Below the pieces are notes generated by a model. The model did not search any database. It saw only the letters and a program-made list of their open reading frames with translations, and was not told the DNA's origin. This document shows, one piece after another, positions 1-33,154 of a stretch of DNA of 36,953 nucleotides (the stretch's first letter is position 1; the number at the start of each line of letters is the position of its first letter). The stretch is taken from contig JALAGF010004526.1 of assembly GCA_030167865.1 (NCBI GenBank), positions 62,001 through 98,953 on the forward strand, written 5' to 3'. The position numbers and the translations under genes are program-made. The DNA comes from Craspedostauros australis (Eukaryota).

Positions 1-644
1 TGCTGAATTGAATTCACACCACGTCTCTTGTTCAACCACTTGCGAAACGGGCCGACAGCTTGCGAGAGGCAACGTCTGATGCGAAAGTCGTCTGTGAATG
101 CCGCGCAATGCAGCCACGCTCTCAAGGATCGATTCCTCGGCTGTGCTCGGACGAGCAAGAGTCCTCGGAGCCTTGTATTAGTGAGCCCTGGCCTGGTTGG
201 CGTTTCGTCGTGCTATTTTCCAAGGAATGAGTGAGAGTGCGGGTATTAATAGTAAGTATGTGTGGTTCGAGTGCAGCCTGAGTGTTGTCCGAATGTTTGC
301 ATCCGTTGGTTGGTACGACTACTCTTCCTGTTTCTGTGATCATCGGCTTGCTTCTCTTTGTTGACTTCTGACACATGGCGGTGGATGTCATCATTGACCT
401 GTGTGCACACTCGTGATTGAAATTCACGGGCGTGATTTGATTCGCGTTGTTGTGATTCCTGTTGTTCGGCTGTCCACGTTTGGCCTCTTGGTTGTCTTTT
501 GGTCGTGTTTGCGTTTTATCGTCAGTTCCGGTTCCACGATTGTTCCTCCGTTGGGTCCTGCCGTCGCCCGTTTCCAGAGTTGATGAGAACCAGCCAATCA
601 ACGCAAAATTGAAGTCAAATGAATCAGAACAGATACCTTTTGCG

Positions 645-649
645 TTTCT
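645..649. repeat. Target-site duplication TTTCT (partner at 7951-7955)
   Basis: The same 5-mer lies immediately outside both LTRs; 5-bp TSDs are typical of Ty1/copia. Confidence 0.93.
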
Positions 650-819
650 TATTGGAACGTAGGTATAGTCGTAAGCGTGTAACTTGATGTATTGATTGGT
701 TTGAGGGATTATGGCTATTCCATCTCGTTGTGTTCTTGTTCTTTTTCTTGGTGTCTGCTGCTTTTGTTTTGGATACGGTTTCCGACTCCATGGACTCGAT
801 CGATGCTCAGGCTCCAATA
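650..819 (-). repeat. 3' LTR (170 bp)
   Basis: Direct repeat of 7781-7950. Preceded on the minus strand by a purine run, and contains the polyprotein stop codon at 807-809. Confidence 0.96.
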
Positions 820-3800
820 CGCCCCTTCAGCACATGCATGGTGGATGCACCTTGGTTGGGCTGATCGATGTATACAAAGTGAATCGTCTTCGTTGATTCC
901 ATGTATGTTGCGGTAGGATCAGCTGGTTGACTCGTCGTGGCTTTCTTGATTTGTGCGAGGTGATGCGGAGTTCGGAATAGTGTGGCGTTGACGACGCGGT
1001 AAAACGATGCCTTTGATACGGGTTTTGTGAGGATGTCGGCTTCGTTATGATCTGATGGAATGTGAATGAAGCGAATGGCCTTGGCGGCGATGGCTTCTCG
1101 GATTCGATGGTACGCAATACCGCAATGCTTCTTTTTGAGAACGCTGGAGGGTATGCTTGTGTTCAACACGACCGACTTGTTGTCACCGAGGAGCAAAGCT
1201 GGTCCAGCAAGAGGAACCCCAATGACGCGTAGAGCGGTGCGGATCTCCATGATCATATCGGTTGCAATGCGAGCGGCGACGAGTTCAGAACCATACGTAG
1301 ATGATTCCACTGTGCGTTGGCGTTTGCAGTAGGTGCGAACGATCATCCCATTGATCTTGACGATGACACCTGTAACCGAGCGGCGAGTGACGGCATCGTG
1401 TGCATGATCGGCATCCACATGAACGGTAATGTGTGCTTCCTTACCCCTTGGAGTAGGCATCTTGTGTGGTAACTCCTCATGGGCGTATGGGTAGTACTCC
1501 GTCCATTTGTCACTCTCATGTGATGTGTATTGGCGATGGTCTGGTATGGTAGGATCACACAGGATGCGGCCGTTGCGATGCGTCTTCAGGTACCCAAACA
1601 CTCGGAGTATAGCTTTCATGTGGCCTTCACGCGGAAGCATGGAGAATCTTGATAGGGCCATCGTGGCAAACTGGATGTCAAACCGACCCAATGTGATGAT
1701 CCAGTTTGCGCATCCAATCATCGTACGGAACTTGTTGGCCGCCCCTGAATCCAACAAAGGTGAGTCATCCAGCTCGGCGTGGTAGGATTCTGCCATCGGG
1801 GTACTGTATCGTGGGAGTTGTTGCTGAGTCAGTGATTCGATCTTTTCGCATGCTGTTCCGATGTAGGTTCGCGCCGACAATGCAGTGAAGACCCCGTCTT
1901 GTTGCCATGCTTCGTCCAGTTGCTCAATGTTGCCTCCAAGATAGTACATCGGGGTACCAACGCCTTTCATCACGTATTTCGACTTGAGCACCTTCATGAC
2001 ATCCATGGGATGTCGGCTGAATACCAGCACATCGTCAACATACGTTGCGATCATCTCGTAGTGGTCTTCTTGTGCACGTATCCACAAGTCCGTATCGTAT
2101 GGTGTTGGTTGGAATCCCATCTCACGGAATGATTGCGCCAAGTGTTCGTGAAAGCGGGCGCTTGATGTCCGGAGTCCATACAGCCCTTTGTGGATGATGA
2201 GCGGCTGCCCCTGTTTGTCACCAAACTCTGGTCCTGCAATGACATAGCACCGTTCTTGCGTTTTCGCATACAAGAATGCGTTTCCGACGTCTCCAGCACA
2301 CACCTGCAGTCCGTTCATTGCAGCGATGATGAATGCAATACGCATGGTTTCGAATGCAATGACTCCGGAGTATACGTCCTCGACGGATGGATCAGACATG
2401 TTGCCATTTGCAACCAGTCGGGCCTTGCGTCGCAGGTCGAATTTGACGTCAAAGACGATATGGTACGGAATGCACTTGTACGTGTTGAGATCGTCGTCGT
2501 TGGTAGGGCTGCGAAACGTCTGGTACGAATTGATTTGTCCCATCTCCTTTGCGATGGCATCCTTCCATTGTGAATCACCGTTGACCTTGTCCAGGTACAA
2601 TGCATGTCGGATGTTGTTGGGCACTTGTATGCCAAACTTGTATCGCACCTTGGATCGCGGCTTCGTTGCGGCAAGGACCTGCTTGTTGATGGTGTTGAAC
2701 GCATTGACCCAAACAAAAGGCGGAGTGCTCGTAAGCCGATTATGTTGGGCATAGCGTGTCACGGAGAGGGGATGTTGCAGCCGCATTTCATCCACGTGAT
2801 GCCAACTGTGGGAACCGTCCATCCACTCCATGAGTAGTCGGTTGTCATCATGTGTGATGACGCGTCGTGCTGAGTTATCCATGCATGGACCGTACACAAT
2901 CGCCTCGATTTTGGCTGAGTTGACATCAAGGGAAAGGACTGTGTGCAAACGGTCTTGCTCTGCCTGTGTGAGATCACGACGGATGCGTCTTGGCTCCATG
3001 GAGTGACTGTTGGCTTCGTCGCTGTGCTGGCCGACATGAGCGAAACGACCACCGTTAGGAGTATCGTGGGTTTGAGTCGCCCCTACGACGCAGGACGGTC
3101 CGAGCTGTAGTACTACGTCGTGAGCGATGGCAGTGGCCGTCACGGTAGCGAGCGCGTCATCATTGTAGCGACGTTTCCATGGGTGTGCGTCGCCGCGCCC
3201 CTGAATACGGCGTGATCGTCGAGGTGCCGCTGCCGGAACCACATCATTCCTGGTCGCCAGGGACTCGGGTGGCGTCGTAACCCCCCCTGACTCGGGAACA
3301 GACGAGGTGTGTTTGCGAGGCAACGACGAAGACGTCGGCTGGGACGCGTGTGGCACACTGACAGACGCCGGGACTCGAGACGGAACTGCAGCCTTGGTCA
3401 TGTTCGGTTTGCGATACTGGGTGAGAGCACGGTTGATGGGTTGGCGATCGGCCGTCAGCTGGAGTGGTTGAGGCGGGGAAGGGTGTGAGACTGCTGGATC
3501 GAGCTCCTTGTGGAACCCAAGTCGCTCATTCGCCATGTGAGGCCGGTACGGGCGTACGACGCTGCGGACGAGGACACGTTGGTTATGGTCAGCCAACACG
3601 AAGTACGTGAGTGAATCACCGCAGGACGGGGCGGTCCCAAGCCAATAGCCTGTCTTCTCCTTGGATTGTGGGAATGAGCTGGTCGGTTCGTGGAAGTACA
3701 CCTTCTCAAAAAATGTGAACGTCAGAAAAGGTGAGATGTCAACTGTCTCACCGGTGCGAACAGTGATCGGAATGTTGTATCGCAGGGATTGGTCCGCTGT

Positions 3801-6800
3801 GACGTTATGAATATCAGCAACATACTTGGCAGCGAAGAACCAAGCCCTTGGTGGCGCACCGGTACGGTCGAGAACGTTGTGTACGTGACCCTTGATCCAT
3901 TTCACCGCTCGAAGCTCGGCCGGATTTTGGTTTTGGAACGTGGGTTCCGTGAGTTCCATACCGATGTGGAGATCACGCAGGACACGATCGACACGCTCAC
4001 CCGTCTGTTCGTTCGCATTGTCCATTCTGAAAGCCCATGGGGCGCCTTCCTCGCGAATGAAGTAGTTGATGGCGTCGCTGACTTGTTGTTTCGATCGTAA
4101 ACCGACGATGTTGATGACGTGTGACGACATCCCGAAGAAGACCTGCGCACATGTGAAGTTTTCACCGTATGATGGGGTGTTGGCGAAGAAGGTGTCAGTC
4201 GCAACCACCTCCTTGATGCGTGGTCGCCGCATCCAAGCAAACCGAGATCGGAGATGTCTGATCATCGGCCATCGGACAACAGCTTTACAGTCCTGGGTCG
4301 TGCGCTTGAGCGTTTCCTGAATCACCCGGGCGTTGCGCCATCCTAAGTATGGCCGCAAACGAACAGGGTCATGCACGGCATGCTTGGCCTTCACTTTGAA
4401 GCCAACATCATGGACATTGATTTCGTCTGGTTCGGTCGGCGATGGCGCATGAGCATTGTGTCGCGCAGCAAGAGCATCAGATAAGTCATTGTAGGAAGAA
4501 ACGGTGTCTGTTTTGTTTTTATTGACGTTGTCAATAGGCACCGTTTCTGCGTCGTGGAACTCATCTGATGCGGAAAGTACCCAGGTTTGTGGGGGTGTTG
4601 TGATCAGGGCCTCGAGAGTACTGTGCTCACACGTACACATGCTGGCGAAATCAAGGATACCATCCATGATTGCACCCGGTGGTTGTTCCTGTTCGGTCAC
4701 GTCAGGGCAGGTGGTATGAAGACGCATGTGAGGAATGCGCATGACTGGTGCGTTCGCGCACTCATGGAAGGCCGATGGCGGGTCGGGTGCTCGGGTCGCA
4801 TCCTCAGAACGGTGGATGGCCATGGCAGCATCAAAGGGCATTAGGTCTTCGCGTGATTGATGGTGATCAGATGGTTGCCATTTGTAGTCGTTTGTGACAA
4901 CGAATACTGGAAGCCGCTCCATATCATCGTCAGTGGGTGGTTCGATATTGAAGGTCATCAAGGCATTTCGGACTGACAAAGGAATCGTTGTCGTTTTGGT
5001 TGGGTGCAACGACTGTGTTCCTTTGGATGGTGGATCCACTGTCTTGAGGTGATGAGCAGCGACAGAGTCGACTACGCATCCGGCTTCCCGCATTTGATAC
5101 TCCGACATGAGTGTCACCCTGCTTCCTGGATTCAGTGCACACTCATTGGCGTGCAACAGCACTTTTGTTCCATCATCCAAGGTGGCTTTTGTCACGGCTG
5201 AGACGACTCGAAGCCCATTCTTGCGCATGGTTGATGGTATGGCACCGATGACGTTGATGCGACGATCAGGGTTGACGCTCTCCACCCTCCATACACCACC
5301 AAGGCTTCCCAGAATGGTGCATTGGGCCCCGCTGTCGCATATGGCATATGCATCTTCGTTGCCATCTGTTGCACTTGCGTGTATACCCATGTGCGTGGAT
5401 GTCACAACCGGGTCGTTGGGTCTGGGCTCTGACGGTGCGAGTTGGAGGTCGGTGTACACTGTCGTTGCGGCATATAGGCAGAAGTCGTTATCACCATCGC
5501 TTTGACTGTATTCGAAGTCGTCATCATCCGACTCCATCCCACCGGAATCATACCATTCGCCAGTCTTGTGACCTGCACGGGTGCCGTCATCGCGTACTGA
5601 TGCCGCAGTCATGTTGTACTGCATGGGCATGGTGGAAGTTGGTTGGTTGCCTTCGCCCTTTGGTTTGATAGGTACATCCCCCGACGGCTGGGCCCCCCCT
5701 GGATCTGGTATCGTGGGGTTATGCGGGCCTCGAACACCCTTAGAGGTGAGCCGTCGGATACGTTCCCGAAGGTGGCGGATGACCCTTCGCACTTGGGCGG
5801 GAAGCTGCCGGAAGACCGTGCCATCAATGAAGTTGTCATCACGTTGGGCCGCATCCAAATGTGGTTGAGCAGCACACACCAATAGTTCTGCATGTGACTG
5901 ATCACACTGCATGAGGGCGGCAACGAATGCGACATCATCGTAGGGAGACATGTCCGAATCGTCGACATGGACTTCCTTGGTGCGTACGTGAGACGCGCGC
6001 ATTGTGCGATCGCGAGGGCGTGCCTTGCGTCGATGATGTTGCTGTTGGATCTCATCTTGTTCCCGAGCGCGAGCTTGGATGTACTCACACATGCTTTGAA
6101 AGTCGCCCATCTTGGTTTGTGACCGAGCAAGGTTGGCCCACATGATGTATGTTGGGTTGTCGGAAGCAAGGATGGCACGACACAGCTTGCGACGTTGTGC
6201 AACTTCGTCGAGTCGCTCTTCATTGCGGCCAGCCTCCTCGTTGTATGCCAATATCGAGTCGCGGAAATCGTTGATGAATTGAATGATGTTGTCGTTGGCA
6301 CGAAGAGTGACATCCAATCGAGCAAGGAGGGCGTCCGCTCGAGACATGCGGCGTGCTGGACTGTCACAGCTGCTGACAATATCACTCCAAAGTAGGACAC
6401 CATCGCCTTCGTGATTCGTCTGTATGAGGTAGTCCATTGTGCTCCCATCGACTGCTTCTTGAAGGAATCGTGCCAAAAGCGCAATATCCGATTTCACTTG
6501 CACTTTGGAGAGAGGGAGTGGAGCCTCGTAGAATGGATCGATGTAGTACGTGACAGCATCAAGTCCTCGCAGACGGTATGATCTGGCAAAATCGCTGCTG
6601 AGGAGATACTGCATCCCATACGGGACGAGGAAGGCATGGAAGCGCTTCTTGAACCGAGTGAAATGCATTTCGTCCTCGAACTTGCAGTTGGGTGGCAACT
6701 TGGATGGCCGACTGACTTTTATTGACGATCGTGGGGTAGGCGGTGTAGTCTCATCGTCAGCAGATGATGTGGATCCGAACTCAGGCATTGTAAACCGAGT

Positions 6801-7547
6801 GCGTGGCTGTGAAGCCATGTACCCACTGGTGCTGTGTGGGGTCAGAGATGGTGACATACGTGGCGAAGTAGCAGGTGATCGATGGTGCTGCTGTTGGGGT
6901 TGGTTGTCACCATCATTGGCAGTATGGACGTTGAGTGGTGTAGGAGGCAATGTCGCCATTGATGGCTCGTTTTGTTTGGTGATGGTGACAGTCAAAGCCA
7001 TCTTTGTGCGTCGAAGCCATGCCTCAGGAGTGCTGACAGCGTGCTTGGAACTGGCCTTGCGCATGGCGAAGTTGTCGGAGGATACTTGACGGAATATGTT
7101 TCCATGCGAAAAGGATTCAGGGAAGATGTACGTTGAGGCAAACTCGTCGAAGGCCTCATGGTCAATCTTGTCCACATCGACGACTGGTTTGTTGTTGTCG
7201 TCTTTGCTGATGATCTTGTTGTCCGTGCAGTACTGACCGAAGGCGTACATGCGTTGGAAGTCGTCCTTCATGCGCACTGGGTCGACAGGGTATCGAAGGT
7301 TGTCGAGGTTGGTCTTGAGGGGCAGCGTCGCGAAGTAGTAGAGGTGATTGATCACCTTTTGTTTGTCGAGGCCATTGCGAAGCGCTCGTGGTGTGCAGAT
7401 GGGCACAAGGTATGCGAAGGGTTCGGTGAATGCGAGAGTGTCGGTAATGTAGGAAATGACTGTGGTCGTGGCGTCGGGTGGTTCTGGAGGAATCCGGAAG
7501 GATCCCACAGACTCCTCCTCCATCGACTCATCAACCTTGAGACTCAT
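807..7547 (-). CDS. Copia gag-pol polyprotein (~2246 aa)
   Basis: First ATG at 7547. Aspartic protease AICDSGAQ (~5336). Integrase DDE: ATDTFF (~4196), MDNANE (~4022), QNPAE (~3917). Chromo-like EWMDGSHSW...P..V.RYA (~2700-2870). RT: KARLVANG, LYGLRTS, YVDDVL (~2040). RNase H: DADHAHD, TYGSELVAAR, GDNKSV, NEADILTK. Confidence 0.96.
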   Translation of the reverse strand: MSLKVDESMEEESVGSFRIPPEPPDATTTVISYITDTLAFTEPFAYLVPICTPRALRNGLDKQKVINHLYYFATLPLKTNLDNLRYPVDPVRMKDDFQRMYAFGQYCTDNKIISKDDNNKPVVDVDKIDHEAFDEFASTYIFPESFSHGNIFRQVSSDNFAMRKASSKHAVSTPEAWLRRTKMALTVTITKQNEPSMATLPPTPLNVHTANDGDNQPQQQHHRSPATSPRMSPSLTPHSTSGYMASQPRTRFTMPEFGSTSSADDETTPPTPRSSIKVSRPSKLPPNCKFEDEMHFTRFKKRFHAFLVPYGMQYLLSSDFARSYRLRGLDAVTYYIDPFYEAPLPLSKVQVKSDIALLARFLQEAVDGSTMDYLIQTNHEGDGVLLWSDIVSSCDSPARRMSRADALLARLDVTLRANDNIIQFINDFRDSILAYNEEAGRNEERLDEVAQRRKLCRAILASDNPTYIMWANLARSQTKMGDFQSMCEYIQARAREQDEIQQQHHRRKARPRDRTMRASHVRTKEVHVDDSDMSPYDDVAFVAALMQCDQSHAELLVCAAQPHLDAAQRDDNFIDGTVFRQLPAQVRRVIRHLRERIRRLTSKGVRGPHNPTIPDPGGAQPSGDVPIKPKGEGNQPTSTMPMQYNMTAASVRDDGTRAGHKTGEWYDSGGMESDDDDFEYSQSDGDNDFCLYAATTVYTDLQLAPSEPRPNDPVVTSTHMGIHASATDGNEDAYAICDSGAQCTILGSLGGVWRVESVNPDRRINVIGAIPSTMRKNGLRVVSAVTKATLDDGTKVLLHANECALNPGSRVTLMSEYQMREAGCVVDSVAAHHLKTVDPPSKGTQSLHPTKTTTIPLSVRNALMTFNIEPPTDDDMERLPVFVVTNDYKWQPSDHHQSREDLMPFDAAMAIHRSEDATRAPDPPSAFHECANAPVMRIPHMRLHTTCPDVTEQEQPPGAIMDGILDFASMCTCEHSTLEALITTPPQTWVLSASDEFHDAETVPIDNVNKNKTDTVSSYNDLSDALAARHNAHAPSPTEPDEINVHDVGFKVKAKHAVHDPVRLRPYLGWRNARVIQETLKRTTQDCKAVVRWPMIRHLRSRFAWMRRPRIKEVVATDTFFANTPSYGENFTCAQVFFGMSSHVINIVGLRSKQQVSDAINYFIREEGAPWAFRMDNANEQTGERVDRVLRDLHIGMELTEPTFQNQNPAELRAVKWIKGHVHNVLDRTGAPPRAWFFAAKYVADIHNVTADQSLRYNIPITVRTGETVDISPFLTFTFFEKVYFHEPTSSFPQSKEKTGYWLGTAPSCGDSLTYFVLADHNQRVLVRSVVRPYRPHMANERLGFHKELDPAVSHPSPPQPLQLTADRQPINRALTQYRKPNMTKAAVPSRVPASVSVPHASQPTSSSLPRKHTSSVPESGGVTTPPESLATRNDVVPAAAPRRSRRIQGRGDAHPWKRRYNDDALATVTATAIAHDVVLQLGPSCVVGATQTHDTPNGGRFAHVGQHSDEANSHSMEPRRIRRDLTQAEQDRLHTVLSLDVNSAKIEAIVYGPCMDNSARRVITHDDNRLLMEWMDGSHSWHHVDEMRLQHPLSVTRYAQHNRLTSTPPFVWVNAFNTINKQVLAATKPRSKVRYKFGIQVPNNIRHALYLDKVNGDSQWKDAIAKEMGQINSYQTFRSPTNDDDLNTYKCIPYHIVFDVKFDLRRKARLVANGNMSDPSVEDVYSGVIAFETMRIAFIIAAMNGLQVCAGDVGNAFLYAKTQERCYVIAGPEFGDKQGQPLIIHKGLYGLRTSSARFHEHLAQSFREMGFQPTPYDTDLWIRAQEDHYEMIATYVDDVLVFSRHPMDVMKVLKSKYVMKGVGTPMYYLGGNIEQLDEAWQQDGVFTALSARTYIGTACEKIESLTQQQLPRYSTPMAESYHAELDDSPLLDSGAANKFRTMIGCANWIITLGRFDIQFATMALSRFSMLPREGHMKAILRVFGYLKTHRNGRILCDPTIPDHRQYTSHESDKWTEYYPYAHEELPHKMPTPRGKEAHITVHVDADHAHDAVTRRSVTGVIVKINGMIVRTYCKRQRTVESSTYGSELVAARIATDMIMEIRTALRVIGVPLAGPALLLGDNKSVVLNTSIPSSVLKKKHCGIAYHRIREAIAAKAIRFIHIPSDHNEADILTKPVSKASFYRVVNATLFRTPHHLAQIKKATTSQPADPTATYMESTKTIHFVYIDQPNQGASTMHVLKGRIGA
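820..828 (-). other. Putative polypurine tract (GAAGGGGCG)
   Basis: Purine-rich run directly abutting the 3' LTR on the coding strand; it is short. Confidence 0.7.
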
Positions 7548-26659: not shown

Positions 26660-27087
26660 ATGGTAGATCACTCGTGTGTTCTACTCGTATTATATTCAGT
26701 TGTATGCAAGCATTGCAATGCAAGGGCATCATTGAGTACTTGCGATCATTCCAGGACTGTGTAGCTAGATCGTAGATGGACCGAATTCGATTCTCTACCC
26801 TCGACATTCTATTGCAATTCTGACGACAGACGGACGGTACGAAAGACAACCAACAAAAACTGCAAAACAAGACCAAAACCGAAACAGGTGACGATGGTGA
26901 TTGCCGAAACCAACCAACACACACACAAACGTGAGAGAGCAGCATCAACGCAAGCAACAGTCGTGACAACCGGAACGACCACAACACCCACCAATCAGGA
27001 TCAACACCACCTTCTTGCCACCTTCCTTCTTTGCTGCTGCAGTATCACCTTTCGCCACAACGAGCTTCGAAGAGTATTGCAATCACC

Positions 27088-27480
27088 ATGTCAAACAATG
27101 ACTCGAAAAAGAACTCAACCTCGCGGTTGCCACCGGAGGTGAACCGCATTCTCTTCGTGCGCAACCTCCCGTTCAAGATCACAACAGAAGAGCTGTACAC
27201 GATATTCGGCAAGTACGGCGCTGTCTTTCAGATACGATTGGGCGACAAGGACAAGGACACGAAGGGAACGGCATTTGTTGTCTACGAGGACATTTACGAC
27301 GCCAAGGCTGCCGTAGATCATCTCAGCGGCTTCAACGTCGGTGGACGATACCTCATCGTTCTGTACTACCAGCCGGCCAAGTTCCAGAAACGAGTGCAGG
27401 CAGCGGAGAAGCAAGAGGAGCTGGAAGAATTGCGTCGCCAAGTCAAGGCGAAGAAGGCCAAGATGAAGGCTTCCAACTAG
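27088..27480 (+). CDS. SF3B6: U2 snRNP SF3b 14-kDa subunit (p14, RRM)
   Basis: RLPPEVNRILFVRNLPFKITTEELYTIFGKYG...TKGTAFVVYEDIYDAKAAVDHLSGFNVGGRYLIVLYY closely follows the p14 consensus. Confidence 0.97.
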   Translation: MSNNDSKKNSTSRLPPEVNRILFVRNLPFKITTEELYTIFGKYGAVFQIRLGDKDKDTKGTAFVVYEDIYDAKAAVDHLSGFNVGGRYLIVLYYQPAKFQKRVQAAEKQEELEELRRQVKAKKAKMKASN

Positions 27481-28206
27481 AAAATAGACAGAAGAGAGAA
27501 CACAGGGAGAGAGAGAAAATGAAAGAGAGTGGTGATGGGCAAACATCACACAGGCATACAATCGCATGTGATAGCATTTGATCTTGAGTATTTCTTTGCA
27601 TCCCTCGGTGGTGATGTGTTGGCACGGAGTACCGTACGCGTACGAATCTACTTCGCACAGCCGTATGTCTTTGATGTTCGAGTGCCACCATGGATTGGAA
27701 ACGAACACGAAGATGACACACACAAACACATACACGCACGGACTGTCACTTCGTCTGGCGTAATAAAAATGCGCGAAGACGTTGGTGTGGATGTTGACGA
27801 GAATGATACCAGCATGTGACAATGGTGTTCATACTACTCGTCTTGCCAGACAGCAGCAAATTGCTGAACCGCAGGGCGACACGGAGAGTGCTTCCTCGAG
27901 AGCATGAACGTCGTACAGTAACGCACCTTCAACACTACCAACTATTATACGATGCTCAGATGCGAGATCCCTTCCAAACCCCAGTCACCGTGGATAAATG
28001 CGAGTGTGCAACTGTGCAAATGAAGGAGACCAACAGTGGCGAACAAACAAGCAAATTGACAAATCAATGAATGCAGGAATCACTTTGGCGAAACAAAGCT
28101 TGAAGCAAAGAGAGATTCATTCGGCACCCATTAGATCCAAGAATAGTTGCCTCCTTTGGCAAAACCTTGCTGTGACTATTGACATCATCATCATGCTTGC
28201 TGGTCC

Positions 28207-28821
28207 TCAGGTATTGCTATCGTTCGATGGCTGCGTCCCAAGAAAGTGCTCCCACGATATCCACTCGCCTCGTCCTCCATAGTATTGATCCGGACACGAT
28301 GGAATGTAAGCATTGCGCTTCTCGCCCATCGCGATCCAATCCGTCCAATCCTCCTCGGTCTTCCACCTCCCAATTGCTTGCACCCATTTGCGACACTCGT
28401 CATACGGCAAGAATCGAGGCTTGGCCTTCAGAAAGCGCTTCTTATTCTCTTCCTCCAAACGTAGCTTGTTGACGCGCCATGATAGATCGTTGATGTGCTC
28501 GCCAGCGGGCGGGAAGTCTTCCTCCGAGAAATCAGAATTGGCAGCCAGCAACGCTTTGCCACGAATCGGAAATGTCCGTTTGATGCCGCGCGTACGGCTT
28601 CCTCTAATGATGTGTGGTGATGATGATGATGACGTCGCTGACTGTATCCTTCTACTGATCCCGTTGCGCAACGCGAAGCGTGTCGGCGACATCGGCTTCG
28701 CCACAAATGCGTCAACCACCGACGCCTGCATCTGCAGCAGATCAAAAGGAGCCGACAGTACCACCATGACGAAGGCAACAATCACCAACACCATTGCGGC
28801 GGGCCGCGACGACTTGCGCAT
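28207..28821 (-). CDS. Plastid-targeted protein (~204 aa) with a C-terminal Trp-rich 'integrase-repeat'-like module
   Basis: ATG at 28821 (alternative 28794). Hydrophobic signal peptide, VDA-FV cleavage motif and an S/R-rich transit peptide. C-terminal FLPYDECRKWV...EEDWTDW...IPSCPDQYY...GEWISWEHFLG resembles the phage-integrase repeat unit pattern. Confidence 0.75.
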   Translation of the reverse strand: MRKSSRPAAMVLVIVAFVMVVLSAPFDLLQMQASVVDAFVAKPMSPTRFALRNGISRRIQSATSSSSSPHIIRGSRTRGIKRTFPIRGKALLAANSDFSEEDFPPAGEHINDLSWRVNKLRLEEENKKRFLKAKPRFLPYDECRKWVQAIGRWKTEEDWTDWIAMGEKRNAYIPSCPDQYYGGRGEWISWEHFLGTQPSNDSNT

Positions 28822-29192
28822 TACGATTCGTCGACGATGCCGAGCGCCGATTCCACGGCCTCGCGTCCCTTGATCCTGTTGACGATCTTTCCGTTGATCA
28901 CGGCGTTGGGTCCGTAGCCGCATTCGCCTTGGCATTCGCAGTCCGTGACCTTGAATTGCGCCGCGAGATCCTTCTCGTCGATGACCTCGTTGATCAGCTT
29001 GAGAAGGCGCGGGCCTCCACCCGCGCGCTTGCAATCTTTGAAGCTGCACACCTCGACGGTCGTCTCCTCGGCATGCAGCGCCGTGATCGACCGTGCCGCA
29101 CCTGCGATGGGGGTGAACGCTGTCGTGCGCTGCGCAGCGATCACCAAGATCGAGGCAGCCACGACAAGCATCAAATTCAGTCGACATTGCAT
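28821..29192 (-). CDS. Plastid-targeted thioredoxin-like [2Fe-2S] ferredoxin (123 aa)
   Basis: Signal peptide + TTA-FTP motif + short transit peptide. VEVCSFKDCKRAG ... CECQGECGYGPN gives the Cx4C...Cx3C-GPN ligand pattern of TRX-like ferredoxins. Confidence 0.85.
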   Translation of the reverse strand: MQCRLNLMLVVAASILVIAAQRTTAFTPIAGAARSITALHAEETTVEVCSFKDCKRAGGGPRLLKLINEVIDEKDLAAQFKVTDCECQGECGYGPNAVINGKIVNRIKGREAVESALGIVDES

Positions 29193-30400
29193 GATTGATG
29201 GTCTTTCTTTCGTTGCGACGAGAATGTGTGGTCCCTGGGGGAGAGATGGATGGATAGATAACAGATAGAGAATGAGTGAATGAGAGAATGACGTTGGCAG
29301 TGATAATGGCCTTCCTCTTCTTGTTGTTGCGATTCTGCCGATGATTCTTTGGAACTTGATCGAACGTCATCCACTCGTACTCGTACAGTGCAGCCGCCAC
29401 ATCTTCCGCACTGTTGCAAACATGCGCGCCAACACCGAACATCCGCCATCAGCGACCTGCGTCATCGTCGGAATTGCTCCAAACACGATGAAGAAAAGAT
29501 GAGACGAGTTGGGACACGCTAGTTCCAAAATCGTATTGGAGCTCCAAGTCAGATCACGTGGGTCCTCATGAGAACAAATTGAATTGCTCATACGACACCA
29601 GGACTCACTGATTTGCATGAAACGCACAACAAGGACACAATGGATAGTGAATCCAGACAAGGTGCAAGATCAGACACCAATTGAGCATTCATGACAATTC
29701 GATCTTGCGTCTTGCCCATCATCATCTGCTCTGACACAATCAATCCTCCATCTGCAAGTGCATTACTTCCTTCTGTTACCTGCCAATACAACCAATCAGA
29801 TTGCAGGCCACACAAGAACAGAGAGGCTCTTCCTTGTTCTGAATCAGAAGATTCCGACCAGACTTCCATAGAGAAGATATGCATCAAGTGCATCTACAAG
29901 AGAAGGAGCTGCTTTGTTTGGTCTTACCAAAAGGCGCCTTATCCCATGGCTTTGCACGTTTACTTTTCTATGACTTCTCCAGCTGAACAAGTTCCCACCA
30001 TAATCCCTTCGATAGTAATTTACAACCTATTCAAATTAATACCAGTTCACATCGATCCTCTCTCTTCAGTTTCCTGCTTAAGTCTCAACAACAAACGGTT
30101 CATCAACCGGTTGAGAACAGGCCTTCGCTGGGAACGTGCCCCAAAAGCACGGAACATTCACTAGGGGAAATAACACGGCGATGTGCGTGGTAGATAAGGG
30201 CGTATAACTTTTGAAGCAAAGGTCGGATGAAGACCATTTTTATATGGATAAGATCGTACGGTGGTCTAGATTTGTTTTTATATGCCATTTTAAATTTTAC
30301 GATAATCTGATTCACGACTAGGCGCGACTGCACCATCGGTCACTCATACGGGTATTAGACTGTTCATTTCAAAGTGTCGATCGACTCGTTCGAGGGGCTC

Positions 30401-33154
30401 TTAGAGTTCTTCACAGGCAGATGGGGATGGTCCAGGGCAGTCTGTGGCGTCGTCGATTACATACGTCTCGGTAGGTGACGCACACAATGGTTCTCGGGCG
30501 CAACCGTTGCAGGTGATTTCTGTCGTACACACTCCTGCTCTGATGATGATGTCATTGGTTGCACTGCCACTGGTGCCAAGACCATTGCACGTGCTCGCAC
30601 CCGAGCAGGCACCGTCTTCGATGATCACGTTTCCTGTAAATTTGGCCGACGGATTTTCTGCATGCAAGTCCCTACAAGCAAACTCCCCTGTGCAGGCCTT
30701 CTCTCCGACGAAGACGCTTGTCACGATTAGTGTCGTGGGTGTAGATCCTTGGCTTGCGCGGTTTGCAATGCGATTGCATGCCTCGGGTTCATTGCATGCT
30801 CCTTCTTCCAGTCGTATATTGCCAAAGATATTCGCTCCAAGATGGTTGCAACTCTGTCGCTCGACACAAGCTTTTGGTCCGATCACCCTGGACCCGACTT
30901 CGACACCGGCAGCTGGCTGATCTGGGTCGAAATTGCCCAACCGGAAGCAGGCACCAAGGCCCTTGCAACTGTCAAGTATGATTGCATTGGGGCGTGCGAA
31001 TATGCATGCAATATTTCCAGTACATGATCCTGAGCTCACCGTCATGACACTGCCATCAACAGGTTCAATGGTGCAAGCATTATTACCACTGCAACAGTCA
31101 TCACTGCACGCATTCGTCACCGCAGATGCGCTACCAGTGAAGAGCTTCGTGTCTTCCTTCGCGATTGCCAACAATGCGTTGGTCACACTTTCGTCGTTCT
31201 TGATCTTATCAAAGCGTTTCTGCGCCACCTGCAACGTCACGGGCTGCGGAGTGTCTGCATCATTGCATCCAAAGATGCTCTTGACCATCTGGCGCTTCCC
31301 CTCATCAGTCAGAGCATCAACCGCATTGACAAAGGTTGCGCATGTGCCTGTTGCACCATCGCACAATACGTCACCAGTGACCCTATTGAACATTGACGTG
31401 CCATCACCCGGTGTTGAGAGACATCCTACTGTGAAGGATGCTGGGGTGAGAGTTGGGCTGCTTGTTCTTGTAGGCTCTTGCGAAGGCTGCGATTTTGATG
31501 ATGGCATGTCAGATGGCAGGGTGGATGGGAGTGCGGATGGGAGTGCGGACGGTAGAGTAGATGGCTGATTGGACGGCAGGCCAGAGGGAAATTGAGACGG
31601 CTCATCGGAAGGCATGCTGGTTGGAACGGGCGTGGGTTCAGCCGACACAGTGGGAAATGGGGTGGGAAAGAACGTCGGACAGTCTGTGGGCAAAGTGTCC
31701 TTGCCAATGCAGTACTCATCCACTTTGTCACCAGTAGGATTGCCCCCGGAGCTGCTGTCTCCCTTTGGACAGGCCCCATCGACATCGCTGATGAAGTAGA
31801 ATTCATCAGGGCTGCACTCCGTCTTCGTCATGCATCCCCTGCAGCCTTCGACGCTGCCGCATCCACCAGGAGGAACGATGATGTCCGTCTTCATTAGGTC
31901 ATTGAAGCCCATCTTCTCGCACGACCCATCAGCAGCGCAACCACCAGCACCAATGGTCAAGCTGCCTGCAGACTTGCCACCAGTACCATAGTTGACAGTG
32001 GAATGGGCATCCTTGCAGGCATTGCTGCCGACGCACGCATTCGCCCCGATGTCGATGTGGCTGCGGATGCGCATGGGGGCCTTCTGCACGACGCGGCGTC
32101 CAGCTGCATTGCATGCCTCTGATCCAACACATGCTCCGGTCTGAATGGTGACATCACCATGAGAACGACGTCCCACTCCCTCGCAAGATTGAGGGGTGGT
32201 GCATGCCATCTCGCCAACGAAGGTGACCCCTGTGATGGATGGGTTGATTTTATTTTCGTTCATCAATTCGCATGCACTCTCACCAGTGCATGAGGAATCG
32301 AGGACGAGGGAATTGGGTCCCATGTCCTTGCAGGCGCTATCACCGGTGCAGGCAGTGATCGCGACGGTCATGAATGGAGGAGAGTTGGAGGCAGAACCGG
32401 TGACTGAGGTGCATCCCGAGGATCCTTGGCAGCATGGGTCGGTGACAGGCGGCGACTGCGCCATTCCGATGGCCATGCACGTCTCCCCCATTGCGTCCGG
32501 ACGTTCTGTGACGAGGATCGCGTTGGTGGCAGTGATCATCGCGAGTTGCCCAGCGAGCACGTCATGCGACGCGTACTGGTTGAAGAGCTTGCGTGCAGCT
32601 CCTTCACCAAGGTCTCCTGCGCATGCGAAGAAGTTCTGCAGCTGCTCGGATTCTTTGACGGCGGTGATGGCTTCGCGGCAGGATGGCTTGTTAGCATCGC
32701 AGATGATGGTCTTGGCGCTTCTCTCTTCTGTTGTGATGGCAGTTTTGCCATCCGGCTTGCAAATGACCTCGATGGTGGAATCAAAGCCGGATGGAGGCGC
32801 TGTTGGCTCGGATGTTGGCAGGAGAGTCGGTTGAGAGGTCGGCAAAGCAGTTGGCTGAGCGACAGGCGTCATAGAGGGCATCTCCGAAATCAAGCCTGTC
32901 GGCGGCCCAGTAGGCAACGCGGTTGGCGCGGTTGTTTCTGCGCCAGCCGGGTTTTCAGTGGGTGGCACTTGGTTGTTCTTGTTGCCCTTGTTGGTCGTTG
33001 TGTCGCCGGCCTTGAGGATGCGGGTCTTCATCATCATCGTGTGGAGTTCCTCGGTTGGATCCACAGGAGTCCTGTTGCCGCGGAGCACGGCGTGGACCGT
33101 TGCCGTGTTGGCGAGAGCGAGAAAGGTGACGAAGGCTGCCTTGGTGTGGATCAT
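30401..33154 (-). CDS. Secreted Cys-rich repeat protein with Pro/Thr/Ser linkers (917 aa), probably cell-surface or extracellular
   Basis: Signal peptide MIHTKAAFVTFLALANTATVHA followed by VLRG and RIL. PTxxPT/PSxxPS repeats and many (A/S)CxGxx(A/S)C units; no introns are needed. Confidence 0.85.
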   Translation of the reverse strand: MIHTKAAFVTFLALANTATVHAVLRGNRTPVDPTEELHTMMMKTRILKAGDTTTNKGNKNNQVPPTENPAGAETTAPTALPTGPPTGLISEMPSMTPVAQPTALPTSQPTLLPTSEPTAPPSGFDSTIEVICKPDGKTAITTEERSAKTIICDANKPSCREAITAVKESEQLQNFFACAGDLGEGAARKLFNQYASHDVLAGQLAMITATNAILVTERPDAMGETCMAIGMAQSPPVTDPCCQGSSGCTSVTGSASNSPPFMTVAITACTGDSACKDMGPNSLVLDSSCTGESACELMNENKINPSITGVTFVGEMACTTPQSCEGVGRRSHGDVTIQTGACVGSEACNAAGRRVVQKAPMRIRSHIDIGANACVGSNACKDAHSTVNYGTGGKSAGSLTIGAGGCAADGSCEKMGFNDLMKTDIIVPPGGCGSVEGCRGCMTKTECSPDEFYFISDVDGACPKGDSSSGGNPTGDKVDEYCIGKDTLPTDCPTFFPTPFPTVSAEPTPVPTSMPSDEPSQFPSGLPSNQPSTLPSALPSALPSTLPSDMPSSKSQPSQEPTRTSSPTLTPASFTVGCLSTPGDGTSMFNRVTGDVLCDGATGTCATFVNAVDALTDEGKRQMVKSIFGCNDADTPQPVTLQVAQKRFDKIKNDESVTNALLAIAKEDTKLFTGSASAVTNACSDDCCSGNNACTIEPVDGSVMTVSSGSCTGNIACIFARPNAIILDSCKGLGACFRLGNFDPDQPAAGVEVGSRVIGPKACVERQSCNHLGANIFGNIRLEEGACNEPEACNRIANRASQGSTPTTLIVTSVFVGEKACTGEFACRDLHAENPSAKFTGNVIIEDGACSGASTCNGLGTSGSATNDIIIRAGVCTTEITCNGCAREPLCASPTETYVIDDATDCPGPSPSACEEL

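Follow-up and report, generated by a model that had tools for sequence, protein, structure and literature searches.

A candidate dual-coding nuclear gene in diatoms: overlapping frames for a plastid-type [2Fe-2S] ferredoxin and a Trp-rich protein in Craspedostauros australis

Long, conserved overlapping reading frames are textbook features of viruses, while in cellular genes they are rare and mostly contested, with XLalphas/ALEX as a mammalian example of dual coding. At the p69/p206 start codons of turnip yellow mosaic virus, "initiation coupling" was reportedly described by Matsuda and Dreher in 2006. A second route to two proteins, termination-reinitiation at UAAUG or AUGA, is known from influenza B M1/BM2 and from calicivirus VP1/VP2 with a termination upstream ribosomal binding site (TURBS). 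Viral AUGs lying 4 nucleotides (nt) apart have been described, with a coupling mechanism cited for them (PMC2832772), and a downstream AUG is described as influencing initiation at an upstream one (PMC12415969); both accounts, which concern viral and reporter mRNAs, have such close AUGs drawing on the same scanning ribosomes and cite the 2006 work. Dual-coding genes are on record from viruses and a few mammalian loci, and the account of the mammalian ARFome proposes that dual coding may be worthwhile where interacting proteins are tightly co-expressed (PMC1868773). Polycistronic nuclear mRNAs of green algae, as described by Gallaher et al., yield two or more proteins from one mature mRNA; a spacer separates their open reading frames (ORFs), the frames are random with about 1/3 in frame, and the start context of the first ORF sets the product ratio, with leaky scanning as the favoured mechanism (Gallaher et al., 2021; PMC7896298). 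The present analysis concerns a 36,953-nt stretch of the diatom Craspedostauros australis (assembly GCA_030167865.1, contig JALAGF010004526.1, positions 62,001 to 98,953), referred to as the window, on whose minus strand the ORF of a ferredoxin (Fd) is overlapped by a longer ORF in the -1 frame, termed ORF-B. As judged from its sequence, this locus is probably a dual-coding (overlapping-frame) nuclear gene on one mRNA, in which a first start codon, AUG1, would open the Fd frame and a second, AUG2, would open ORF-B; the probability of this reading is put at about 0.6.

Like seadornavirus VP7/ORFX and turnip yellow mosaic virus p69/p206, the locus would have two closely set AUGs on a single capped mRNA, with a long ORF starting from each in its own frame. 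It is unlike those viral cases in being a diatom nuclear gene, in start-to-start distances of 5–11 nt, and in a second ORF that outruns the first and carries a conserved domain beyond the overlap. As in the green-algal mRNAs, separate proteins would be made from one mRNA, but here the ORFs overlap by about 122 codons in a fixed -1 frame with no spacer. Long overlapping frames in a cellular mRNA are likewise the point of resemblance to mammalian dual-coding genes, from which the locus differs in its diatom lineage, in an overprinted part that is seemingly a mere stop-free leader, and in two products that both have candidate plastid-type presequences. The word "diatom" is absent from Gallaher et al. 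(2021; PMC7896298), and literature searches, with supplements outside their scope, found no description of diatom bicistronic, polycistronic or dual-coding nuclear genes, or of this ferredoxin.

All features of the locus lie on the minus strand of the window. The Fd ORF (28821..29192) encodes 123 amino acids (aa) followed by a stop and begins at AUG1 (29190..29192), which has an A at -3. The candidate start of ORF-B, AUG2 (29185..29187; ATGCAATG), is a -1-frame ATG located 5 nt after AUG1. ORF-B itself (28207..29187) comprises 326 aa and a stop, made up of a 122-codon leader over the Fd ORF and of ORF2, the part that in its junction-start form (28821..28207) has 204 aa. The Fd ORF ends in GAC GAA TCG TAA, and the final A (28821) of its stop codon (28823..28821) doubles as the A of ATG CGC AAG TCG, the resulting TAATG junction (28819..28823) overlapping the Fd stop with a Met codon of ORF-B that is a possible auxiliary restart site. 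The original prediction, which saw here a bicistronic locus translationally coupled through TAATG, was accurate as to the zero spacer and the shared A, as to the next in-frame ORF2 ATG at 28794, and as to the distance of the other neighbours, with the RRM gene ending at 27480 and the next minus-strand ORF beginning at 30401. What it overlooked was the open ORF2 frame upstream and the second ATG at 29187. The ORF2 frame is stop-free through the whole Fd ORF, forming a 411-aa ORF (28207..29442) in the ORF list of the window. The nearest ATG upstream of AUG1 in the window is at 29370, 178 nt away, with none between; the putative 5' untranslated region (UTR; 29193..29340), taken from the 5' end of a contig of sequencing run X1 to the Fd ATG, is correspondingly ATG-free.

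Searching metagenome contigs with the ORF2 alignment yielded 47 related loci (numbered with the prefix L); in 19 of them ORF2 is immediately preceded, on its own strand, by an Fd homologue (tblastn and hidden Markov model, HMM). The pairing of Fd and ORF2 is widespread, not universal, and the prediction of two distinct plastid-type proteins set side by side without a spacer is thereby extended to a conserved arrangement. After merging of near-identical contigs the 19 paired loci represent 12 lineages, or 13 counting the window, and protein-level identity among them is only about 45–65%. A distant group (L042, L043 and L044) has a weak Fd match (E 2.3e-6) and the same layout of Fd and -1-frame ORF2, across an intron. 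The contig of L041 carries, about 2.3 kb upstream of its main match, a second ORF2-like match on the other strand (433..678, minus strand).

The relation between the two frames is constant. Relative to Fd, ORF2 occupies the -1 frame in 19 of 19 paired loci, and the distances from the Fd stop to the first ATG, at -4, -1, +32, +35, +44, +50, +104 and +134 nt, are each 2 mod 3. Over the Fd coding sequence the -1 frame holds no stop in 11 of the 13 lineages unspliced and in 13/13 after intron removal: the single -1-frame stops of L012 and L014 fall in intron sequence, and once these loci are spliced in silico (GT..AG introns picked by Fd HMM score) the frame runs without a stop from a point ahead of the Fd ATG into ORF2. 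The +1 frame over Fd, by comparison, has 1–12 stops across the 13 lineages. Synonymous-codon shuffles (5000 per lineage) predict means of 1.6–7.7 stops in the -1 frame, and the probability of finding none is about 0.03 for 3 lineages and at most 0.006 for 9. Two controls were available. In the same 13 sequences, ORF-B beyond the overlap carries 8–36 stops in its own -1 frame, and eight other ORFs of the window carry 0.9–7.2 stops per 123 codons, with 28 of 561 segments of 123 codons free of stops. The overlap amounts to 122 codons with both frames open, beyond the shuffle expectation and conserved.

Conservation extends to the second start codon. A -1-frame ATG follows the Fd ATG at +5 in the window, at +8 in nine lineages and at +11 in two, that is, in 12/13 lineages with an Fd 5' end, and the consensus of the AUG1/AUG2 region reads aaaATGaaagyATGc. 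The codon ahead of the Cys codon varies (GCA, GTA, TCA, CAA) and its final A is constant, with 22 of 29 aligned Fd homologues beginning M-x(1-3)-C. A purine occupies -3 at AUG1 in 11/12 cases and at AUG2 in 12/12. Further along the Fd ORF, two internal -1-frame ATGs (28921..28935) arise where GAA TGC encodes the Glu-Cys of the cluster-binding motif; they stand at -112 and -100 relative to the Fd stop and are found in every paired lineage listed. The spliced contig L032 has, in its 5' region, a further ATG ahead of the Fd ATG (positions 45 and 138), and the two share a frame uninterrupted by stops. L030, of the same lineage, has a different 5' end.

Spliced contigs bear on whether the two frames share a transcript. 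L027 is without an intron that is kept by the 99.6%-identical L028, where the L028 side ends in a pyrimidine tract and AG, and L030 and L032 are without an intron kept by the identical L031. The intron-free contigs of these two lineages hold AUG1, AUG2, the whole Fd ORF and the whole ORF-B. Because intron-free contigs span both frames while near-identical contigs retain the intron, these sequences indicate that the two frames share one mature mRNA in each of the two lineages. For the window, one 2356-nt contig of run X1 covers about 26985..29340 with no differences and ends 148 nt upstream of AUG1; X1 is the only run listed as containing the window locus, and no run on record as RNA was among the matches. 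The contig joins the Fd/ORF-B locus to the convergent RRM gene (27088..27480, plus strand; PF00076, E 2.8e-18) across a stop-to-stop gap of 726 nt, as would be expected from overlapping 3' UTRs or if the run contained DNA, and as transcript evidence for the window it is suggestive only.

If the locus is dual-coding, scanning ribosomes would meet AUG1 and AUG2, 5 nt apart, on one mRNA, and, on the model of turnip yellow mosaic virus p69/p206, leaky scanning or "initiation coupling" would decide between them. Initiation at AUG1 (29192) would give the 123-aa plastid-type thioredoxin-like [2Fe-2S] ferredoxin. Initiation at AUG2 (29187) would give the 326-aa ORF-B product, in which the Fd region, read in the -1 frame, would become a 122-codon leader that is visibly Arg-rich, an impression gained from reading the translations. 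Past the Fd stop, ORF-B would continue with a hydrophobic core and an A↓F-type motif (the arrow marks a candidate cleavage site), a transit-peptide-like stretch, an acidic linker and a Trp-rich C-terminal domain.

The bipartite plastid presequence of diatoms consists of a signal peptide and an ASAFAP-type motif with F at +1. In the window the hydrophobic core MVLVIVAFVMVVLSA and the candidate cleavage motifs LSA↓PF and VVDA↓F, identified by eye (28705..28794), lie about 130 residues inside ORF-B. The core corresponds to residues 11–21 past the junction, is followed by VVDA↓F and has a mean Kyte-Doolittle hydropathy of 3.64 over 11 aa; in most relatives the core is likewise followed by a G↓F or A↓F motif, again by eye. 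Signal peptide, AF motif and transit peptide were called throughout by eye and by hydropathy scan. The core would serve as a signal sequence, whether internal or very long, and cleavage by signal peptidase would release an F-initiated plastid precursor identical to the junction-start product, with the TAATG Met of the window possibly serving as an auxiliary restart site as well. An internal signal is plausible because stand-alone members of the ORF2 family carry residues ahead of the core and because very long cleaved signal peptides exist. The stand-alone homologues (L008, L013, L025, L035, L038 and others) have 25–60 residues from the first ATG to a hydrophobic core with G↓F or A↓F, which suggests that an N-terminal extension is tolerated. 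Among described long signal peptides are the 98-aa signal peptide of mouse mammary tumour virus Rem/Env (PMC8725593) and those of vertebrate proteins (PMC2447879). The ORF-B leader is like them in placing a long N-terminal stretch before a hydrophobic core, with signal peptidase still cleaving in those systems, and unlike them in its length of about 130 residues, in its derivation from the alternative frame of another gene and in its proposed role in a diatom plastid presequence. The fuller proposal, held tentatively and at slightly under even odds, is that of a conserved diatom overlapping gene in which ribosomes divide between AUGs 5–11 nt apart, some making a plastid [2Fe-2S] ferredoxin and others a second plastid protein whose bipartite signal works from about 130 residues into the chain. 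Viral "initiation coupling" would then have a cellular counterpart.

The fixed -1 frame, the stop-free -1 frame and the conserved second ATG together argue that the long ORF is started at its 5' end, and dual coding is preferred because a junction restart, a nested promoter or a frameshift needs none of these three features, which make the signatures of the locus unusually clean. Rather unlikely as the main route in this organism is termination at the TAA (28823..28821) with restart at ATG 28821, yielding the 204-aa ORF2, the mechanism at the heart of the original prediction. It draws on the TAATG of the window, on the usual, N-terminal placement that a junction start would give the signal peptide, and on the public gene call P0001, which is exactly the 204-aa form. 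A junction ATG is moreover present in 6/13 lineages (as TAATG in the window, L007, L012, L023 and L029, and as ATGA in L030) that are scattered on a poorly resolved tree, above expectation for one of 16 A-starting codons. The same ATG is nevertheless absent in 7/13 lineages, and in three of them no usable ATG precedes the hydrophobic core, which lies 5–55 residues past the junction: L003 and L010 lack any Met between junction and core, and the only Met of L005 in this stretch falls within the core. TAATG termination-reinitiation is not supported as the conserved feature. Reinitiation also leaves the open -1 frame, the fixed frame at spacers of 32–134 nt and the conserved AUG2 unexplained. Without a TURBS-type element, ribosomes that have translated 123 codons usually restart inefficiently. 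A string search of the 100 nt upstream of the junction found TGGGA, the core of calicivirus-type restart elements, in 5/13 lineages, where its position varies, and the window is not among them. The locus thus resembles the UAAUG/AUGA systems in the TAATG of the window and four further lineages and the ATGA of one, and departs from them in having no conserved TGGGA, a junction ATG that is dispensable in 7/13 lineages and a downstream frame open from the 5' end. Retention of the junction ATG still exceeds neutral-codon expectation, so that in the window TAATG may contribute as a site of restart or internal start.

Nested transcription units, in which a promoter and start for ORF2 inside or just after the Fd ORF would give a monocistronic mRNA and the overlap would reflect a compact genome, are improbable. 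The many relatives with a stand-alone ORF2, its own ATG and an in-frame upstream stop (17 loci) favour such an arrangement, and shorter mRNAs are compatible with the short-read contigs; yet lineages with no ATG ahead of the hydrophobic core could make no targeted protein from such an mRNA, the spliced contigs of two lineages span both ORFs, and nested units give no reason for the open -1 frame, the fixed frame or the conserved AUG2. Programmed -1 ribosomal frameshifting late in the Fd ORF, producing an Fd-ORF2 fusion protein, is very improbable, even though the -1 relation is kept in 19/19 loci and the -1 frame is open ahead of the Fd stop. Canonical X_XXY_YYZ heptamers occur in the last 105–165 nt in only 4/13 lineages, at differing positions and with none in the window; a frameshift site requires neither a 5'-open frame nor a conserved AUG2, and the fusion would set the second signal-like segment behind a folded, already targeted domain.

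Several observations weigh against the dual-coding reading. The shuffle probability of a stop-free -1 frame is 0.11 for the GC-rich window, which is non-significant by itself, and the shuffle null somewhat overstates the expected stops, ordinary genes being mildly depleted (e.g. 93 observed vs 116.9). The lineages are related and hence are not independent trials. L043 is an exception to the conserved second start, with AAG at the place of AUG2 and the next -1-frame ATG about 20 codons on. Unlinked relatives, which the original prediction had counted against coupling, do occur beside the 19 of 47 loci that are linked: 17 loci examined have a stand-alone ORF2 homologue with an in-frame upstream stop and its own ATG, and L038 and L039, the nearest domain match to the window (78%), are among the stand-alone loci. 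Trees of the ORF2 domain and of the paired lineages have too poor a resolution to place the pairing or the junction ATG as ancestral, and are too weak to tell whether stand-alone ORF2 copies are paralogues or losses. The scattered excess of junction ATGs over neutral codon expectation counts in the same direction, as do the RNA status of run X1, which is a guess, and the fact that two genes on one contig need not share a transcript. Finally, no diatom precedent was found for a plastid presequence about 130 residues inside a chain.

The dual-coding reading is directly testable in transformable diatoms. If the fuller proposal is true, the overlap would fix the ratio of two co-targeted proteins. 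The locus would offer a natural two-protein expression design for diatom engineering, and it raises the question of whether a plastid presequence can work from an internal position.

Thioredoxin-like [2Fe-2S] ferredoxins are a described group (PMC5343412), and the assignment of the first product to them in the original prediction is borne out by Pfam, by four Cys ligands and by a structural match. The Fd protein scores 25.5 bits against PF01257, barely above the curated cut-off of 24.8, and has the Cys pattern CX4C...CX3C at Cys49, Cys54, Cys87 and Cys91; in an alignment of 29 Fd homologues C49 and C54 are invariant, and C87 and C91 nearly so. A profile of the Fd homologues matches the Trx-like 2Fe-2S domain of 7p5h_A, a solved hydrogenase subunit (E 1.6e-6), and the ligand Cys residues of Fd align to Cys residues of 7p5h_A. 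NCBIfam NuoE-type models score far under their cut-offs on Fd. In its CX4C...CX3C pattern and small size Fd is like the PF01257 members NuoE and the C-terminal domain of HydA, and unlike them it has a putative diatom-type bipartite presequence, its N-terminus being signal-peptide-like by eye (..AAQRTTA↓FTP); it is not a DGAT3.

The homology search for Fd gave 40 relatives among 72 candidates. None of the 40 is of NCBI, UniRef or EukProt origin, whereas ORF2 homologues do have such sources. The 123-aa Fd and the 326-aa and 411-aa forms have no exact match in the protein collection; the 204-aa ORF2 is matched. Because 0/40 Fd homologues come from NCBI-annotated genomes, whereas ORF2 homologues do, Fd may be systematically overlooked by diatom gene models. 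If the fuller proposal of an overlapping gene is true, a ferredoxin gene would be missing from annotated diatom proteomes, with models that allow one coding sequence per mRNA choosing ORF-B.

The second product belongs to a family with 159 relatives at E<=0.001 among 228 candidates, the named ones being diatoms (Seminavis, Epithemia, Chaetoceros, Cylindrotheca, Nitzschia, Pseudo-nitzschia and MMETSP transcriptomes). Conservation in this family is confined to the C-terminal approximately 100 residues. These include a helix-like segment, DLSWRVxKLRLEExN..RFLKA (28420..28494), in which L113, W115, L122, E123 and L131 are invariant in the alignment, and a Trp-rich C-terminal unit, PRFLPY..W..W..GEKRN.YIP..P..YY..W.SW.HFLG (28234..28419), that resembles a single INT_rpt unit. 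For the -1-frame leader, a homology search with residues 1-125 of ORF-B gave 203 candidates, 0 of them with E<=10. A leader HMM shows that 23 of 228 stored ORF2-family proteins, among them the transcriptome ORF P0102, labelled complete by its source, have the -1-frame Fd reading as their N-terminus, and in 7 of 120 listed ORF2 relatives the N-terminal extension is the Fd gene out of frame. The Chaetoceros tenuissimus protein P0065 (NCBI) was considered as a long ORF-B form, which the leader HMM did not bear out.

Neither ORF2 nor ORF-B has a Pfam or NCBIfam match, and a PDB profile search with ORF2 gave nothing meaningful (best E 2.1). A profile search with the ORF2 domain against 1.84 billion representatives retrieved 1666 relatives at E<=0.001, some of which are long proteins with 5–14 tandem matches to the last approximately 65 profile positions (P0165, P0190, P0241, P0253, P0256 and P0258 were noted). 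PF14882 (INT_rpt) is above cut-off in 3 of 7 multi-repeat relatives, beside GIY-YIG, SNF2-helicase or RING domains, and the Atlas lead from ORF2 to INT_rpt scored 0.85. Because multi-repeat relatives match the last approximately 65 positions and 3/7 of them match PF14882, the C-terminus of ORF2 can be described as resembling one INT_rpt-like unit, a link that is transitive through those relatives; a direct PF14882 match was found in 0 of 31 family members at E<=10. ORF2 is accordingly like INT_rpt in its last approximately 65 residues, and unlike it in having a single copy and no direct Pfam match. A predicted complex of the Fd domain and the ORF2 domain had a score of 0.01, which speaks neither for nor against binding.

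Two further minus-strand ORFs of the window are of separate interest. The ORF at 30401..33154 encodes a Cys-rich protein of 917 aa with Pro/Thr/Ser-rich linkers and a signal-like N-terminus, and has a weak, sub-threshold match to DUF7640 (25.8 bits vs 28.1). At 807..7547 lies a retrotransposon with a long intact frame, an ORF of 2246 aa whose product has a Copia-type reverse transcriptase domain (PF07727, E 7.4e-22).

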